Shown here piece by piece: positions 18,705-42,856 of a stretch of DNA of 64,000 bases. The translations under genes and the position numbers were made by a program. Every line of letters starts with the position of its first letter. Position 1 is the first letter of the stretch. Under the pieces are notes generated by a model. The model saw only the letters and a list, made by a program, of their open reading frames with translations. It searched no databases and was not told the origin of the DNA. The stretch comes from a virus (lineage: Duplodnaviria > Caudoviricetes): the IMG/VR virus record IMGVR_UViG_3300050491_000011. One strand, 5' to 3'.

Positions 18705-18738
18705 CCGTAAATAGTTACTGGCATAGTGCTATCTTATG
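18705..18738 (+). promoter_or_regulatory. CCGTAAATAGTTAC-N16-TATG putative promoter
   Basis: one of three bipartite copies; TATG is the known phiKZ late-promoter core. Confidence 0.6.
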
Positions 18739-19345
18739 TGAACATTCGCACTAAGGACTTCGATTGGACATTCGTGTTCGTATCGCGGTGGCTCTTTGCG
18801 CGGTTCTTGCTTCGGTAGACTCGACGGCTAAACCTCCCGAGATTCGGGTGGCGCAGCCGTCGTACTACACTTCCTCAGATGAACAACTTACCAAGATGCA
18901 AGTCTTCTTGCAGGCGAGGGAGTTGGAACTCGAGAAGCGCGAATTCGACCCGTTCTTAAGTACCACGTTCTTCTGGGGAACGAAAGGGCTGAGTGGGACG
19001 ATTATTGAACCTCGCACCTGCAACCCTGCCAGCGTATACTCAGTCACAGGGCGTTGGACCCTGGTTAGGCATGAGAGAGACTCCCTGACACCTTTCGGGA
19101 CTTGAAAGATTTACCCACCCGACTGATAAGTGTAGATAGTCAAAAATCGATTCGGGATAACCGGTCAAAGAGGCTCCTGTGTGGAGCAAATGCCAACCCT
19201 GTCCTCCGATGCGCTCGGATCGCCAGATGGTAGATGTATCCGCCACCCCAAGAACTGAAGGCGCCGCCGTTCCAATGCCAGGGATACCTGGGTTTGAGTT
19301 CGGGGTGACCAATAGGTGAGGGGTGGCCATTTCTTTTCTTTATGC
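18738..19345 (+). ncRNA. candidate structured RNA A (whole segment, or only 19106-19345)
   Basis: follows palindrome+TATG; hairpins 18823-18861 and 18897-18912; GCCACCCC 19242-19249 pairs with 19320-19327 before a U-rich run. Confidence 0.4.
18764..19105 (+). CDS. uncertain ORF with signal-peptide-like N-terminus, inside structured segment A
   Basis: TTG start with AAGGA upstream; overlaps several hairpins. Confidence 0.35.
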   Translation: MDIRVRIAVALCAVLASVDSTAKPPEIRVAQPSYYTSSDEQLTKMQVFLQARELELEKREFDPFLSTTFFWGTKGLSGTIIEPRTCNPASVYSVTGRWTLVRHERDSLTPFGT

Positions 19346-34076: not shown

Positions 34077-34625
34077 ATGACCGAGCTTAAAGATCCGTAC
34101 GTTTTGTTTGAAGCACTGGTAGCAATTTCTAAGGGCTGCACTAACGTAACTCAGGCCAAGAGTATCGCAGCACAAGCGCTTAAAGACTACAGCGCTGGTG
34201 ATGTACGTTTGGCTGTGAAGTCTGGCGTAGACAAAGTGACTGGCGCGGTGTTCCAACCTGTTACTCCGGGAATGTATACGAAGCCTGGCCAGAACTTAAC
34301 TAGCTACGTTCTGGACATTCCTTATAACGACGAATGCGAATACCGCTGCGTGTACGTCAGTTATCGTAACGGCGATTCCACTCGATTCATCCTTGAGACT
34401 CCTAAAGGCGTTGATACTAACGTACTCAAGAACGAACTCAAGGATGCTGGTCTCGGTTGGTATCTGCGTAACAATCCTGAATTCAAATACTGGATTCTGG
34501 ATGATGTCGCTAAGACCAAGATCGAAGCAGACTTCAAACCAACCACTCCGGTAATCACAATCCGCGAGTGGAACCACAATAAACGTTTCCGCCATGGCTA
34601 CATTGTGGTGGGTAAACACTCATGA
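34077..34625 (+). CDS. hypothetical protein
   Basis: SD hairpin upstream. Confidence 0.8.
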   Translation: MTELKDPYVLFEALVAISKGCTNVTQAKSIAAQALKDYSAGDVRLAVKSGVDKVTGAVFQPVTPGMYTKPGQNLTSYVLDIPYNDECEYRCVYVSYRNGDSTRFILETPKGVDTNVLKNELKDAGLGWYLRNNPEFKYWILDDVAKTKIEADFKPTTPVITIREWNHNKRFRHGYIVVGKHS

Positions 34626-35962
34626 GGAACCCATCGATGTCCAGCACTACTTCCATTGCGTTCTCCACCGTCAACCGTTACGCGCCTCAAGCGGCTTACC
34701 TGGTCGGCAATCCTGTCAGCGTACTTCCTGACGAGATCACTGCTGCAAACTTGGCTGAACATTTCTGCCACCGGAAAGATACATTGCACGAACGTATCTT
34801 CGATGCTTCCCAAGAGAACCGTCTGCAATTCGTCATTACCCACACGGTAAGCCAGTCTGCTAACTCGACCCTGGTTTACCACCTGTTCGGGTATTCCGAT
34901 CACGACGGTAACCCTGAACTCCTGTCCGATGACATGAAGCTCTATTTCAGCCGGGCGGTCACAATCCGTTCTACGCTGATCCGCGACATCACCGGTTGCC
35001 GAACCATCTCCAACGTGGTAGAAGATGCACTGCTGACGCAGGGCTGGATGGAAGGCGCTCGGGTTCTACGTCCTAGCGACATCTTCCAGAATCTGGGTTC
35101 CGAGGCGGCTTTCAGTGCGTTCATCACGCCCGGTATGAAATGCATCAACCTGTCTGGCGCTTTCAATAAGAATCAGGTGAAGATGATGCACACGAGTAAC
35201 GAGAGTCCTGCTCGTTATATCAAGACCATCTCTGATGCACTTCACGGTGCTATCAAAGACTGCATCGCTGATCCGATAGAAATGAAAGACGACTATCTGT
35301 TCAGCGCGGCGATGGATCGTACCTGCGAACCTTCGCTCATGCACCACTGGTTCCTCAGTGAATTGGTGCGTTCAACCAAGTTCGAATTCGACGGGTTCGT
35401 AACTCTCGGCGACTTCAAGCAAGTGTTTGAACCTGAAACGGTATCGGCGATGATCACCGAGTCTGTTGATCGTACAGACCTCACCCCGTGGACTGGCTCG
35501 GTAGAATCTTATCTGGCCAACCTTCTGATCAATACCGTCAACGCGAGCATGACTGACTACGGTTACATGTCTGTTCGCGTTGACGGGGTAATCGGTAAGG
35601 TTACAACGGCAGCGCTAAACGGTTCCAGCATGCTGGATAAGAATACGTTCGATGATCTCATTCCTGAGTTCGATATCAAACGTCCTCCGTTTGTCAGTAT
35701 CGTGAAGAACGATCTGAAGGCCTTCGTGTGGAATCCAGCAGATGCGGAAATCCAGTTCAACGTGAAAGTCGATATCGCAGGCGTTGCTACAGTCAGCATT
35801 AAAGTCGGCGAAGAAGCACCTCAGATCTTCGAACGTCCGATGTACATGGTCGGTATGTTGTCCGGTCAGTGGGCGGTTGATGAATCTCTTATCGATCGCA
35901 CTCGTTCGTACTTCAAGGACGCTATCAGTGTTCTGACCAGTCGGGCAATCGTTCAGCAGTAA
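34622..35962 (+). CDS. hypothetical protein (446 aa; alternative ATG 34637)
   Basis: long ORF ending at bidirectional terminator. Confidence 0.85.
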   Translation: MRNPSMSSTTSIAFSTVNRYAPQAAYLVGNPVSVLPDEITAANLAEHFCHRKDTLHERIFDASQENRLQFVITHTVSQSANSTLVYHLFGYSDHDGNPELLSDDMKLYFSRAVTIRSTLIRDITGCRTISNVVEDALLTQGWMEGARVLRPSDIFQNLGSEAAFSAFITPGMKCINLSGAFNKNQVKMMHTSNESPARYIKTISDALHGAIKDCIADPIEMKDDYLFSAAMDRTCEPSLMHHWFLSELVRSTKFEFDGFVTLGDFKQVFEPETVSAMITESVDRTDLTPWTGSVESYLANLLINTVNASMTDYGYMSVRVDGVIGKVTTAALNGSSMLDKNTFDDLIPEFDIKRPPFVSIVKNDLKAFVWNPADAEIQFNVKVDIAGVATVSIKVGEEAPQIFERPMYMVGMLSGQWAVDESLIDRTRSYFKDAISVLTSRAIVQQ

Positions 35963-35966
35963 GCGG

Positions 35967-36014
35967 CATAAGTACCCACTCCTTCGGGAGTGGGTACTGT
36001 CACTTCTTTTTTTT
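35967..36014. terminator. terminator between convergent genes
   Basis: 12-bp stem AGTACCCACTCC/GGAGTGGGTACT, spacer, T8. Confidence 0.85.
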
Positions 36015-36330
36015 AGAGTTCTTCTTCCGGAATGTCCACCATCGACACCGTCTGACCAGCCAGCTCGTGAGTGCAGTCATTGAGGAATTCCCACTGACCG
36101 TTACGAATAAAGCTGTGGCAAACAACGGCTTCCGTGCAGAACTTATTGAACTGAACCATAATGCTCGGAGAGTAAGTCGGCATATTGACGTTACCGTCCC
36201 ACTGCCATTGCTGACCGCTCCCACTTGGCTTATCGATTGCGATGTGATGCATCCACTTACAGCCTGGGCAATAGAGCCCGTGCATATGTCCAGCAAAGAG
36301 TTCGATCTTTGGTGAAAGTAATTCACTCAT
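36013..36330 (-). CDS. small Cys/His metal-binding protein, DUF6527-like
   Basis: CPGCKWMH, PTYSPSI, CHSFIRNGQWEFLNDCTHELAGQ. Confidence 0.7.
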   Translation of the reverse strand: MSELLSPKIELFAGHMHGLYCPGCKWMHHIAIDKPSGSGQQWQWDGNVNMPTYSPSIMVQFNKFCTEAVVCHSFIRNGQWEFLNDCTHELAGQTVSMVDIPEEEL

Positions 36331-36366: not shown

Positions 36367-37209
36367 ATGTTGGCCGTGATAATCAAAGGTAATCCTAAGT
36401 TCATCAATACAGCATTAGCGAGAACGTACTACTCCGACATCGAGAAGTATCTCAAAGCCCTCGGCTATAAGGTTGAATTCGATGAGGGTAATGACTACAC
36501 CAGACCCCGACAAGATGCTGATCTGTACGTCGCACACTCCCGCGGTGTCGGACGTTACGAGTTCATGGAAGAGAGGAATAAATCGAAGTTCGTGAAGCTT
36601 GGTAGTCTGGACGGTGCAATCGATCCAGTCGATCGTAAGTGGCAGGAAGAAGTCTGGCATCCGGGCATCAAGACGCCACCGCCGCATGAACACTTCATCT
36701 TCACCGACATCCAGAAAGATGCGATCCTTCAAGTAGGCGGCGTTTCGATTGATTCGCTCAAGAAGGTAAATGGTCTATCCAGTACTCTTAGTCCAGATCT
36801 TCGAAGACTCGTAGAGCTGGCGATGAAGGACCCTTACCTCGGGACGCCTGCATTGAAGAGCAACATGGAGAACATCACACCTCTCCTCTATAAAGGTCGC
36901 ACCGTTGGTTTCGCCGTTCCGTTCCGTGAGAGCGACGGTTACTGGCGTACTGGTTCTATCTATATAGAACCCGCATTCCGGCGTAAAGGGATTGCTCACG
37001 AATGGATTGAATCCTTCATGGAAGGTAAAGCTGGACGTGCGTGGATCGATCCACGTAACGCATCGAGCATCGCAGCTTACACTGCGGCAGGCTTTACCAA
37101 GTCAGGGCGGCATGTCAAATCCCCGATCTCAGGTAATTGGTTTGATGAGTATCTAACCGAAGAAGCCGGCATGGAAAGTGCACCACCTAAGACCTTATTG
37201 ACCTGGTGA
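36367..37209 (+). CDS. alpha/beta-hydrolase-like domain fused to a GNAT acetyltransferase
   Basis: YVAHSRG elbow; IYIEPAFRRKGIA acetyl-CoA motif A; N..S.A.Y...GF motif B. Confidence 0.75.
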   Translation: MLAVIIKGNPKFINTALARTYYSDIEKYLKALGYKVEFDEGNDYTRPRQDADLYVAHSRGVGRYEFMEERNKSKFVKLGSLDGAIDPVDRKWQEEVWHPGIKTPPPHEHFIFTDIQKDAILQVGGVSIDSLKKVNGLSSTLSPDLRRLVELAMKDPYLGTPALKSNMENITPLLYKGRTVGFAVPFRESDGYWRTGSIYIEPAFRRKGIAHEWIESFMEGKAGRAWIDPRNASSIAAYTAAGFTKSGRHVKSPISGNWFDEYLTEEAGMESAPPKTLLTW

Positions 37210-37223
37210 TCACTATTATATAT

Positions 37224-37490
37224 GTACTAGGCTGCTTCGGGCTGATGAAGCCAAGTATCATGCTAGGTGGGCTCACACGCTCCTCCACCTAGCCACTGAG
37301 GTCGGGACGCTCTCCTCGACCTAGGCGTTGATGTTCGCGGGTTCGTCAACGTCTTGTTAGGTACTCAGTACTTAGCCGTTTGTTCAGGGTATTGCGAGAG
37401 CGCGCCTTGAGCAAACGGATAGCTACTGCGCCCCTGTGTGTTATCGGTATTCTCCCCACCCACTGGATTCGTCTGGTGGGTGGGGTTTAT
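37224..37490 (+). ncRNA. candidate structured ncRNA B (about 265 nt)
   Basis: no ORF >=60 aa on either strand; TATG at 37221; five consecutive hairpins, loop-loop complement, terminal hairpin 37454-37485. Confidence 0.65.
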
Positions 37491-37500
37491 GCTGCGTTAA

Positions 37501-37522
37501 TAAACCGCAGTCACACATTACC
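37501..37522 (+). promoter_or_regulatory. putative early promoter (AGTCACACATT)
   Basis: recurrent motif. Confidence 0.5.
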
Positions 37523-37554
37523 ATTTTAGATACACCAACCAAAGGAGAAGTTCC

Positions 37555-37947
37555 ATGACTCACATGCTGAACATCACGCTGGATAAGAACGATCGCGATA
37601 AACACTTCACCACTTACAAAGGTCGTAAGATCTACATCTCACCTCTTGCCGATAGTCGCGATAAGCCAGCCGCACCTGTCATCGCATTCAAAGGTCTTCT
37701 AGAAGGACATCTGACCGTCCACATGGTTAAGACTTTTGACGGATACACTGACGAGTATCGACACACAATCCACAGTGGCGATTATAAGGGATACGTCTTC
37801 GTACTCGACCACGGATTCAAGATCAGCGTAGAAGAATTCAATAAGCGCTTCTATCCACATTACTACAAAGAAGATGGCGATAGAATCTGGCGCTGTCCTA
37901 CACGTAGTTTAGACGAAGCGTGGGAGCATTCAGAAGAATACATTTAA
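37555..37947 (+). CDS. hypothetical protein
   Basis: AGGAG RBS after CACACAT motif. Confidence 0.75.
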   Translation: MTHMLNITLDKNDRDKHFTTYKGRKIYISPLADSRDKPAAPVIAFKGLLEGHLTVHMVKTFDGYTDEYRHTIHSGDYKGYVFVLDHGFKISVEEFNKRFYPHYYKEDGDRIWRCPTRSLDEAWEHSEEYI

Positions 37948-37952
37948 ATCGT

Positions 37953-38040
37953 AGTCAAATTAATTACAGTCACACATAGCGAGAGTACATACACACAACG
38001 ATATCCATTCCGGATACGTTAAACGACCGTGGAGGTCAAC
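37953..38040 (+). repeat. promoter-leader module, copy 1
   Basis: 25-bp exact match AGTCAAATTAATTACAGTCACACAT with 59207-59231, plus shared AACGATATC..GATACGTT hairpin and SD hairpin. Confidence 0.85.
38025..38037 (+). promoter_or_regulatory. SD hairpin GACC-GTGGA-GGTC
   Basis: ATG 38041. Confidence 0.8.
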
Positions 38041-40459: not shown

Positions 40460-40466
40460 TCGTAAT

Positions 40467-40501
40467 CCGTAATTAGTTACAGATGGCGATGTACTACTAT
40501 G
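40467..40501 (+). promoter_or_regulatory. CCGTAATTAGTTAC-N17-TATG putative promoter
   Basis: bipartite copy. Confidence 0.6.
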
Positions 40502-40827
40502 TAGAAACACCCTCGTTGATTAGTCAACGCCCAGTTGATACACCTAGCTCTTTTACAATTTGGGTCTCCCTGCCGATAGTCTTGAGTACGGTGCCAATAC
40601 GGTCACGCTCTTGCTTCCCTCGCATAGACAACTCGCTTAGCTGGTATAAAGCCCAGCAAACCCCTAGCGGTCTGACAGAGTCTGATCGCGTTCCCTAAGA
40701 GTTTGGAATAGTACCAGTACAGTACGGGTTCAATCGCCGCGATTGCTTTAGTACTCGAACAAACGTGCCGGGCCTTTCGGAGCATCCCGTAAGAAATATA
40801 AAGCCCGGCCTCGCGCCGGGCTTTATG
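40501..40827 (+). ncRNA. candidate structured RNA C / attenuator-like leader
   Basis: palindrome+TATG promoter; hairpins 40514-40529, 40640-40657, 40732-40744; terminator 40798-40826. Confidence 0.45.
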
Positions 40828-40910
40828 CTGCATGCGTAATAAAAGAAAACAGAGTCTTATATTGTACACTTGAATCTATACCGCCCCTAATACCCGCACG
40901 GAGCATCAAC

Positions 40911-41708
40911 ATGTCTGCCTACCTGTCGCAACAAGATCAAATCAAAGTCAACATTCTGGAAGGCTACGCTCCTCGCAAGCTTACCAATGTGGAAGTCATC
41001 ATCAACGAGATCCGTCTGTTCGATTGGACCTATCCTGATAGTGACTGCCCTAAGGCCTACAGGGCTGGCGCTGAGCGTAAAGAAGTTCTGCGTAGCGCTA
41101 TCTCCTACACGCTTGGCGATAACCCGTCTCTCGCTACTCTGGCGCGTGCTGCGCTGGAAGGTCAACAGGCCCGTAACGATCTGTTTGACAAATACCCGTA
41201 CGTCAAGCACTTCGATCTGATGAATGCCAAGCACCACAAAGGTCTGCTCGGTTGTCATCTGGCTGGTATTGAAGAACATCGTGTCCGTGGAGCCATCAGC
41301 TTCCTCAAAGACCTCTACGACGTCGTTGTAGCGCTTCCAGCGAACAAGAGCAACGTATTCATCTCCACCAATAGAACGCCGATGTATCGCGAGCTGAGAG
41401 CCATTGCTACCAACTCCAAGGTTCCGGCTCTCTTCGGTATGGCGATCCCGGCTCCGCTTCAGAAGCAGGTCTATGAACTCCTGCGTATCAACACGTATAC
41501 GCTCGACACCATCCAGACGTACAGCCTGCACTGCACCGACGAAATGATGGATTACTACAAGAACCATCCGAGCGCCAAAGAAGCTTTCCGCGTCTTCAAT
41601 ATGTTTGAAGTCGTTAACTGCCCTTACGTGCAGGATGCGAAGTATCTTCAGGTCATCATGAATGATCGGTACTACTCGTTCTACGTCAAGCGTAATCAAT
41701 TCGTGTAA
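40911..41708 (+). CDS. hypothetical protein
   Basis: GGAG RBS, 265 aa. Confidence 0.8.
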   Translation: MSAYLSQQDQIKVNILEGYAPRKLTNVEVIINEIRLFDWTYPDSDCPKAYRAGAERKEVLRSAISYTLGDNPSLATLARAALEGQQARNDLFDKYPYVKHFDLMNAKHHKGLLGCHLAGIEEHRVRGAISFLKDLYDVVVALPANKSNVFISTNRTPMYRELRAIATNSKVPALFGMAIPAPLQKQVYELLRINTYTLDTIQTYSLHCTDEMMDYYKNHPSAKEAFRVFNMFEVVNCPYVQDAKYLQVIMNDRYYSFYVKRNQFV

Positions 41709-41753: not shown

Positions 41754-42569
41754 GTGATTTCCGTGAGCGATATTAAAGTCATGGTTAGCGGTGCAGTGGG
41801 CGTTGGTAAGAGTCACGTATTGGCGGTCATTGAGCGAGCCTTGAATGAGGCTTACGGAGATACCATCAAGATCGAATGTGAGGACACTGAGAGCGAGCGT
41901 CGATCTATCGGTGAAGACATCCGTGAGTGGCAGCAGCCTACGGTTGAGAAGATCATTCTAACGCCGTATACGGCGTGGCGTCGAGAAGAGATCGTTGAGG
42001 ATGGCGACGTACCTGCCCTCGATTACTTTAGTGAGTGGACGACAGGTCGGGTAAGTGAAGTAGTCCCTGCTAATCTGTCTCCGTCTGAAGTCAGCGATAT
42101 GGTTAAAGCTTTCGATGAACTGTATCCTCCGTTCAAGCCTCGGTACGAATCGCTGAATGGTCGGATCATTCGGATGGATGAAGGTCATCCAACTGCGGCT
42201 AAAGCAGCTCTCGCCAAACTGGCTGAGTCTGCGAACTTACTGCACGTCGAAATGTTCATGCCGGGTGATACCAACCAGATGATCGGGCTGGGTTACATGA
42301 ATGACGCCAACCTCGCAGTGCAGTACGCGAACCTTATTAAAGGCATGGTCTTCGATATGGCATTCGTTGAACCGTACTTCGGTGATCAGGAAAAGGTCAC
42401 TACGTTCCGTAATGTAGAAGTCCAGTCTGCGATGACTCAAAAGAATGACGGTAAGACTTCAGCGTCCGTTGGATTCAAAGTCGGTAAGATGCGCGTCCAC
42501 CTTCGGAATAAGCACGACAACGATCCATTGCAGTTCGGCATTCCTCTTGGCGTTACCGAGGAAAGCTAA
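41754..42569 (+). CDS. hypothetical protein with N-terminal P-loop-like motif
   Basis: GAVGVGKS near N-terminus. Confidence 0.7.
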   Translation: MISVSDIKVMVSGAVGVGKSHVLAVIERALNEAYGDTIKIECEDTESERRSIGEDIREWQQPTVEKIILTPYTAWRREEIVEDGDVPALDYFSEWTTGRVSEVVPANLSPSEVSDMVKAFDELYPPFKPRYESLNGRIIRMDEGHPTAAKAALAKLAESANLLHVEMFMPGDTNQMIGLGYMNDANLAVQYANLIKGMVFDMAFVEPYFGDQEKVTTFRNVEVQSAMTQKNDGKTSASVGFKVGKMRVHLRNKHDNDPLQFGIPLGVTEES

Positions 42570-42570
42570 T

Positions 42571-42603
42571 CCGTAATTAATTACGGGTGATGGAATCAGT
42601 ATG
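42571..42603 (+). promoter_or_regulatory. CCGTAATTAATTACGG (perfect palindrome)...TATG putative promoter
   Basis: bipartite copy, 15-nt spacer after TTAC. Confidence 0.65.
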
Positions 42604-42796
42604 TGAGAACGTCCTCCGACCATTAAAGTCCTAAGCTTGGTCGCCCAATGTCCTGCGTGGTCGTGGGGTGTCTTCACGTTCAATGAGAAGTTGTACGGTT
42701 GCGGTATTTCCTGTGCTTAAACTCTCATCCGCTCATTGAACATCTTGCACTCCGTCGGTGGCTTCGGTCATCGACGGGGTTATTTTTCGCTTTATG
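42603..42796 (+). ncRNA. candidate structured RNA D (about 190 nt)
   Basis: perfect 16-bp palindrome+TATG; 10-bp stem 42678-42687/42732-42741; terminator 42750-42779; no + strand ORF. Confidence 0.5.
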
Positions 42797-42856
42797 CTGC
42801 ATGTTAGGGATCGTATGTAGTGAATTGGTTCGCTACTTTTAGCAAGGAACTTCACC

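Follow-up and report, generated by a model that had tools for sequence, protein, structure and literature searches.

Intergenic small RNAs (sRNAs) have been mapped in the nucleus-forming jumbo phage 201phi2-1 (PMC11512511), a precedent for RNA genes encoded by phages, and a conserved terminator motif has been reported in 201phi2-1 and phiKZ (PMC11512511), to which the gene-end signal of the genome studied here is analogous. We examined a 64,000-nt stretch (the window) of the virus record IMGVR_UViG_3300050491_000011, a 188-kb IMG/VR record ~75% complete, and within it the spacer that follows a gene with a GNAT acetyltransferase domain. Because its flanking proteins matched only chimalliviruses (201phi2-1, PhiPA3, Psa21 and others, 38–47% identity), this uncultured phage is, by protein similarity, related to the phiKZ-like jumbo phages that form a nucleus, with a genome of roughly 250 kb. 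The element in the spacer was found in 21 metagenomic or viral contigs, representing nine sequence-distinct lineages, and comparison among them shows that it is an RNA family conserved within a clade of uncultured jumbo phages resembling chimalliviruses. Our reading, to which we assign a probability of about 0.58, is that positions 37221-37490 (+ strand) are the gene for a stand-alone, tertiary-folded noncoding RNA (ncRNA) of ~265 nt that acts by virtue of its shape, with a probable link to the GNAT gene. It would be a new, well-supported structured RNA family, of known general kind.

The predicted architecture comprises a 5' hairpin (H1), five back-to-back hairpins (H2–H6), a linker and a terminator hairpin (H7) (Table 1). 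The + strand fold has an energy of -138.8 kcal/mol (z = -6.2), compared with z = -4.1 for the - strand. Many other spacers of the same genome, examined as a control, also fold strongly (z -3.5 to -5.7), so that folding energy alone is not decisive. H1 is predicted with a base-pair probability of only ~0.44; a 5' hairpin with GGGC in its loop (GGGU in one case) is present in every lineage. Besides this GGGC, the conserved unpaired elements are an AC..G junction, the GGGU of the H4 loop, kept across all lineages, and the UYAGCC junction of H5 with H6, in which AGCC is invariant. The linker varies in length and sequence among distant lineages.

An earlier sequence-only reading of the spacer had listed six stems. 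All six are present within one base of the positions it gave, and no stem or motif of its list is missing: GCTTC/GAAGC lies at 37234-38/37247-51, TATG where it placed it at 37221-37224, and the ACGCTC it had noted in two loops at 37277 and 37307. Some lengths and edges needed revision, with 11–12 bp rather than 9 in the stem at 37323-37354, 14 bp rather than 10 at 37454-37485, and the long stem running from 37377 to 37417; two hairpins, H5 and a small one at 37491-37511, had been overlooked. As it stated, neither strand carries an open reading frame (ORF) of at least 60 aa.

Close relatives were found via the neighbouring 446-aa protein: nine further contigs with the same gene order, including a complete genome of 253,921 bp (G001), and all keep the spacer at ~345 nt. 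Distant relatives were gathered by a GNAT protein search and by scanning IMG/VR with the GNAT alignment, yielding eleven contigs with GNAT identities of 42–59%. In these a gap of ~350–380 nt follows the GNAT gene or, in L045 and L047, follows one extra 168-aa gene. Direct protein-pattern scans for two flanking proteins returned no match, and a helicase alignment scan for relatives had G001 as its sole match.

In a 7.4-kb comparison the most conserved stretch extends, with sharp edges, from the GNAT stop codon (37204) to ~37523. Third codon positions in the adjacent part of GNAT have a mean pairwise divergence of 0.338 (68 of 109 sites segregating), and first and second positions 0.075. By comparison, divergence among close relatives is 0.007 for H1–H5, where 3 of 143 sites vary, and there are no segregating sites in the 5' spacer (0/24) or the linker (0/36); H6 and H7 are at 0.13 and 0.10. 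Recent transfer cannot explain this conservation, because the diverged GNAT core directly abuts the RNA. The simplest explanation of the conserved block would be purifying selection on the nucleotide sequence itself.

Matching mutations in related phages show that H2–H6 covary, and on this comparative evidence we take the fold as proven. Of the base pairs that vary in the close group, 11 in all, 10 remain paired and 5 have double compensatory changes, and the one-sided changes are of the types G.U to A-U or U-A to U.G. The H3 variants of L023 preserve pairing in both of these ways (U-A to U.G, G.U to A-U), and four variants of the lower H6 stem, all still paired, occur within the close group. 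In the distant alignment 96.8% of cells were paired, against 75% in shuffles and ~38% with slid partners. Changes on both sides were seen at 43 of 57 pairs, and none of 500 shuffles reached any of the five measures. By helix, double changes affected 8 of 9 pairs in H2 (100% of cells paired), 7 of 8 in H3, 9 of 12 in H4 and 13 of 17 in H6, along with four pairs in H5. Independent single-sequence folds give the same hairpin order in every lineage.

A covariance model (R1) built from the nearly identical close group alone, and spanning H2–H6, detected strongly diverged copies in L043, L044, L045, L046 and L048, in each case at the corresponding genomic position (E 1e-16 to 4e-7). The rebuilt model (R2) detected the held-out L047 (E 4.5e-12) and five further IMG/VR records. 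A second spacer in L048 (5738-5830), ~2 kb downstream of the true copy, gave a weak partial match (28.5 bits, E ~1e-5), and may be a degenerate second copy or a chance hit.

The fold contains 17 G.U pairs on the + strand, which would read A.C on the opposite strand; together with changes of the G.U/A-U type, this argues that the functional molecule is the + strand RNA. It bears as well on whether the block has any function as RNA. Stacked terminator or insulator hairpins, a linker for recombination between gene modules, or a DNA site such as an origin or pac would suit a genome whose intergenic spacers are generally hairpin-rich, and the genes flanking this one are mosaic between relatives, as at PeSL-type junctions of T4-like phages. 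We nevertheless hold such explanations to be extremely improbable. Terminator hairpins vary freely, as H7 does, against the near invariance of H1–H5; the G.U pairs and the G.U/A-U switches fit only a + strand RNA; neither a terminator stack nor a site in duplex DNA would have a use for a covarying loop-loop helix such as the one described next; and no GC-skew inflection, the mark of an origin, was seen.

Two loop-loop pairings had been proposed from the window. For the first, GAGAGCG was exactly at 37396-37402 as reported and is complementary to CGCTCTC, which starts at 37308 rather than 37307. Taken from the window by itself, this 7-nt match (CGCUCUC, 37308-14, with GAGAGCG, 37396-402) does not exceed chance expectation (P = 0.07, loop shuffles); only the covariation in relatives makes it significant. 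The whole L042 RNA carries just two substitutions private to that contig, G37309A and C37401U, at positions predicted to pair with each other. Loops of more distant lineages have different sequences that are again complementary: UAUCCUC/GAGGAUA in L043, AUGUCCUC/GGGGACAU in L044, UCCUCGA/UCGGGGA in L045, CCCCG/CGGGG in L046, CGUUCCC/GGGAACG in L048, GUCCUC/GAGGAC in L052 and CCCCGG/CCGGGG in L059; L047 can form only about 4 bp. Pairing of H3 and H6 loops with their own partners was the best among 5040 permutations over seven lineages, and H3/H6 was the sole combination with p < 0.07 among 21 loop-pair combinations. Over nine lineages, 1 of 200,000 random assignments was as good as the cognate partners. 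Because cognate loops differ from lineage to lineage yet stay complementary, beating the permutations, the contact is real: comparison shows the H3 loop pairing with the H6 apical loop in a kissing helix of 5–8 bp. The proposal of a tertiary-folded + strand ncRNA is thereby upheld, with H2–H6 and the terminator covarying and the kissing pair covarying in nine lineages; the complementarity of the two loops is kept in relatives and the cognate assignment is the best.

The second proposed pairing fared less well. CACACG and TGTGTG are indeed present, at 37274-79 in the H2 loop and 37435-40 in the linker, and their 6-nt match is at chance in the window (P = 0.31). Over all lineages p was 0.06–0.09, with no significant covariation; CACAC...GUGUG is retained in the window, L044 and L052, where one pair switches from G.U to U-A. 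Two other ideas about the loops were dropped. One had the H6 apex as a GCG/CGC mini-stem with an invariant GAGA loop of GNRA type docking elsewhere, and was withdrawn because distant lineages have no GNRA there but are complementary to the H3 loop. The other was an anti-Shine-Dalgarno or sponge role of the CUCCUC loops, which, being the kissing strand, differ in sequence among distant lineages.

Sequence cannot tell whether the H3–H6 kissing forms within one molecule or between molecules. An RNA whose H3 and H6 loops pair in trans, giving dimers or closed rings, is something we consider improbable. The covariation would look the same, and the two loop-bearing stems differ in length (8 vs 14 bp), which we judge awkward for a simple side-by-side contact in cis. 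Large bacterial or phage-associated RNAs that form homo-oligomers through kissing loops are moreover on record (bioRxiv 10.1101/2024.12.08.627333). Set against this, intramolecular loop-loop contacts are commoner, and neither sequence nor model comparison relates the RNA to pRNA, ROOL or GOLLD.

Table 1. Features of the RNA element and its surroundings, in window coordinates.
Feature	Position	Strand	Description
GNAT neighbour	36367..37209	+	280 aa; N-terminal phrog_30942 domain and C-terminal GNAT acetyltransferase domain
5' boundary spacer	37210..37224	+	invariant TCACTATTATATATG containing the ATTATATG/TATG promoter-like motif (TATG, 37221-37224); probable RNA start region
5' domain, H1	37225..37261	+	registers GCUUC/GAAGC (37234-51) or GGCU/AGCC (37240-53); GGGC in loop
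H2	37262..37293	+	9 bp + 2 bp; 14-nt loop GCUCACACGCUCCU; probability 0.98
H3	37299..37322	+	8 bp; loop 37305-37316 with kissing strand CGCUCUC (37308-37314)
H4	37323..37354	+	11–12 bp; apical loop with conserved GGGU
H5	37356..37376	+	9 bp, UCA triloop; ends in conserved UYAGCC junction with H6
H6	37377..37417	+	14 bp plus apex; apical loop 37390-37404 with kissing strand GAGAGCG (37396-37402)
Linker	37418..37453	+	possible weak hairpin 37418-37445; contains UGUGUG (37435-40)
H7, terminator hairpin	37454..37492	+	14 bp (37454-37485), then TTTATGC; predicted RNA 3' end
Next-gene promoter (outside RNA)	37495..37523	+	TAAA/TAAT - about 13 nt - ACATTAC class; small hairpin 37491-37511 inside
Sites of this promoter motif	37495-37523, 6085, 15082, 83339, about 8 more	+	TAAA...ACATTAC class
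Downstream neighbour	37555-37947	+	orphan 130-aa gene with good Shine-Dalgarno

Both edges of the RNA carry motifs found at genes. At the 5' edge every lineage has ATTATATG (ATCTTATG in one case) within 6–24 nt of the stop codon before it, no matter which gene that stop codon ends; the seven distant lineages examined for ATTATATG or ATCTTATG at this edge were all positive. GNAT genes have an analogous conserved TATGTC ~28 nt before their ATG. TATG is reportedly the late-promoter core of the phiKZ non-virion RNA polymerase, and we infer that ATTATATG is a candidate phiKZ-type TATG promoter at the start of the RNA. A AGTTACAG box, found in three lineages, resembles the box before other ORF-poor segments of the window.

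At the 3' edge, H7 plus TTTATGCTGC scored as terminator-like and is a predicted terminator. Its stem changes C-G to U-A and its tetraloop alternates among UUCG, GCAA and GUAA, and every lineage ends in a strong hairpin plus TATGC(C/T)G. A hairpin followed by YTATGC is a genome-wide gene-end motif with dozens of copies, often bidirectional. GC hairpins at gene ends are framed by CATAAAG ... CTTTATG (e.g. window 30466/30489, 43395/43418, 9463/9487), an element that reads as hairpin plus TTATGC on both strands and would therefore be a bidirectional terminator, possibly a TATG promoter too.

Beyond H7 stands a putative promoter for the next gene, of the form TAAA(T/A) - about 13 nt - (C/T)A(C/T)ACATTAC, a motif also found 40–60 nt upstream of at least 10 other + strand genes. 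A related promoter-like form, AATTAATTACAGTCACACAT, precedes the genes at 37958 and 59212. The promoter at 37495-37523 is kept in relatives, and the 5' untranslated region (UTR) and gene that follow it diverge. With ATTATATG on its 5' side, a standard terminator on its 3' side and a separate promoter for the next gene, the RNA is bracketed like a gene of its own.

The same layout could be read as a riboswitch or attenuator, in which H1–H6 form an aptamer sensing a ligand or protein and H7 is a conditional terminator controlling downstream read-through. A promoter, a folded domain with a loop-loop contact (cf. purine and lysine riboswitches), an intrinsic terminator and then genes on the same strand is the order expected, and eight sRNAs arising by premature termination in 5' UTRs have been reported in 201phi2-1 (PMC11512511). 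We find this quite improbable. Downstream genes are unrelated between lineages, and the first is missing altogether in L023, which disfavours a leader role; the stretch from H7 to the start codon holds a promoter of its own; no Rfam riboswitch matched; and no conserved antiterminator or alternative pairing was seen, the complementarity of the window's H2 and H7 arms being lost in relatives (judged by eye). The RNA is thus inferred to be neither a leader of the next gene nor, from the searches described below, an antisense RNA.

On its upstream side the RNA keeps constant company. In 21 of 21 contigs it lies 0–0.5 kb downstream of a GNAT domain, including forms without the N-terminal domain (G001, L026, L052-54, L059-60). 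Where only a homolog of the N-domain exists (201phi2-1, Psa21 and three IMG/VR records) the RNA is absent, both locally and record-wide. The gene itself varies in its modules: some forms have the phrog_30942 N-domain (280/273 aa), some lack it (143 aa; G001, L026, L052-54) and in others it is replaced, and the N-domain region is just 40–50% identical between phages otherwise 86% identical. The GNAT profile resembles, weakly, generic small-molecule or protein N-acetyltransferases (YncA, AAC(6'), PAT, RimI). The link between RNA and GNAT may be functional or merely syntenic.

No lineage has a terminator separating H1 from the GNAT stop codon. The GNAT message would therefore carry the RNA at its 3' end as well, and the RNA could exist only as the 3' UTR of that message: a structured cis element, never made alone, that controls stability, processing or translation. 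The invariable position downstream of a GNAT domain agrees with this, and RNase E might excise the element as a type II 3'UTR-derived sRNA at the AU-rich spacer UAUUAUAUAUGUA, which we take to resemble RNase E sites. We nonetheless think a pure 3' UTR unlikely. In L045 and L047 the unrelated 168-aa gene stands between GNAT and the RNA, and yet ATTATATG stays at the RNA edge. No covarying pairing was found between the RNA loops and the GNAT translation start. Finally, a 230-nt multi-helix fold with a tertiary contact far exceeds what stabilising a message needs, when other genes end with a single hairpin.

We return to the stand-alone ncRNA that we favour. In the mechanism we propose, the RNA would be transcribed from ATTATATG by a phage RNA polymerase, as well as by read-through from the GNAT gene, and would end at H7. 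The kissing contact would lock H3–H6 into a compact shape, displaying the GGGC of H1, the GGGU of H4, the AC..G junction and the UYAGCC junction to a partner, most likely a protein. The RNA's role would be tied to the GNAT module. It is doubtful, though conceivable, that RNA and GNAT form one module of a sort undescribed in phages, with the RNA as cofactor, substrate, inhibitor or targeting scaffold, or that the RNA assembles through trans loop-loop pairs into a ring or nanostructure, as pRNA or ROOL do, as a device for host takeover or anti-defence.

Several points weigh against a stand-alone RNA linked to GNAT. The lack of a terminator behind GNAT is one. The TATG of the window stands in the context ATATATGT, departing from TTTATGC, the commonest form upstream of genes, and it is from motifs that the 5' end is predicted, like the discrete transcript and the 'late' timing put forward by the sequence-only reading. 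Fitting the structural alignment to the model favours the pairing counts, although independent folds of single sequences agree. As to the partner, phage FLC9 has a more remote GNAT homolog and no such RNA, a generic-looking GNAT seems to give no reason for needing an RNA, and the adjacency could be plain synteny within one clade.

We searched widely for a known class to which the RNA might belong. Across the whole window, Rfam 15 (4227 models, including 6S, SRP, tmRNA, RNase P, ribozymes, riboswitches, pRNA, ROOL, GOLLD, HEARO, CRISPR-DR and YrlA) gave no match at the gathering threshold, and in 37100-37650 at E <= 10 it gave only noise (e.g. mir-4524, 18.8 bits vs a gathering threshold of 68). 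ARAGORN found no tRNA or tmRNA gene in the window. These scans agree with the initial impression that the RNA was not a recognisable one, and our search of literature and databases found no family or paper describing it. An RNA-model search of 201phi2-1, PhiPA3, Psa21, Noxifer, DT01, FLC9 and LucasX (>2 Mb, stricter filters) gave no match, cultured phages had no DNA match to the RNA, and Psa21, 201phi2-1 and FLC9 have no spacer after their N-domain or GNAT homologs.

Specific classes were also rejected. Membership with phi29 pRNA, a class defined by the RF00044 fold, intermolecular 4-nt loop pairs and a place near the genome end of phi29-like podophages, found no RF00044 match, and the virus is a roughly 250-kb chimallivirus-like phage. 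Hammerhead and other ribozymes had no Rfam match. A K-turn or C-D box reading of CUGAUGA...CUGA was not conserved in relatives (judged by eye). In a type III toxin-antitoxin of the ToxI kind, tandem direct repeats of about 34–36 nt precede an endoribonuclease toxin gene; here there is no repeat array, and the neighbour is a GNAT upstream of the RNA; H2 and H3 share 12 of 15 nt in the close group only, a likeness not kept in distant lineages. As for antisense action on phage genes, duplexes of loops with translation initiation regions were no better than shuffles over 209 genes, and a 15-nt antisense match to a DHFR-like coding sequence (genome 84904) is lost in G001. Host mimicry or origin was rejected as well, the exact loop pattern having no match in 185,579 bacterial species genomes; no direct search of Pseudomonas genomes was made.

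No paralog of the RNA was found in this genome or in G001. The ORF-poor segments 18705-19345, 40461-40830 and 42567-42800 have no model match or BLAST similarity to it. These three segments are themselves structured, with a start box TCCGTAAWTA(G/A)TTAC plus TATGT and an end hairpin plus TTTATGC(T/C)GC, and 40650-40920 is 96–99% identical across relatives. A further candidate conserved RNA lies past the window's end, in a spacer that folds strongly (z = -4.8) and opens with TTTATGCTGCGTGTTAA: this phage and G001 agree there at all positions of a 201-nt run (genome 180298-180498; window coordinate 83120-83320).

The 446-aa phrog_3141 protein (34622-35962) is hypervariable, at 44% identity in L029 vs 82–90% for flanking genes (DNA level). 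Between it and the GNAT gene is a 105-aa gene (36013-36330, - strand) with a match to Pfam PF20137 (BubE) in the precomputed annotation of relatives, present in two copies in L043. In L048 a helicase homolog (1-1359, - strand) has a weak LAGLIDADG_3 (PF14528) match, which suggests an intein or a homing endonuclease insertion.

Evolutionary proof of the fold is available for very few phage ncRNAs, and proof of a tertiary contact for fewer still; the RNA described here combines five covarying helices with a covarying kissing loop, and is more conserved than the surrounding proteins. The RNA biology of nucleus-forming jumbo phages is almost unexplored, and the element indicates that dedicated RNA genes exist in them outside tRNA arrays. 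Its fixed partnership with an acetyltransferase gene offers a concrete lead to function, and at ~265 nt it is a compact target for RNA structure determination. Were it in truth merely a decorated 3' UTR, it would still be an unusually constrained one.

Known systems resemble the RNA each in part. The phi29 pRNA (RF00044) is likewise a phage-encoded structured RNA relying on covarying loop-loop pairs, but it has 120–174 nt and its trans loop pairs form a ring on the portal of small podophages, whereas the RNA here has no match to the model and no link to packaging genes. ROOL and GOLLD, often on prophages or phages and near tRNAs, are similarly orphan, highly structured, phage-associated RNAs with kissing-loop contacts; they have 500–800 nt and other architectures, while the RNA here has no Rfam match and adjoins a GNAT gene rather than sitting in a tRNA array. 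Purine and lysine riboswitch aptamers share the multi-helix fold with a covarying loop-loop contact followed by an intrinsic terminator; here there is no conserved regulated gene downstream, the gene that follows has a promoter to itself, and a junction-closing helix finds no support. Type I 3'UTR-derived bacterial sRNAs (DapZ, MicL) have a promoter of their own near the end of the upstream gene and share its terminator; the RNA here likewise lies directly behind a coding gene with no intervening terminator, with a candidate promoter at the end of that gene and a shared terminator. Those sRNAs act with Hfq through short antisense seeds, in contrast to a large multi-helix fold for which no target complementarity was found. 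The intergenic and 5'UTR-derived sRNAs of 201phi2-1 and phiKZ (ONT-cappable-seq; PMC11512511, PMC10914365) are alike in being ncRNAs of nucleus-forming jumbo phages with a conserved hairpin terminator motif; they have phage-type promoters, the RNA here a candidate one. They are <250 nt and were defined by their transcript ends, whereas the RNA described here is known, from sequence alone, by its covariation-supported fold.

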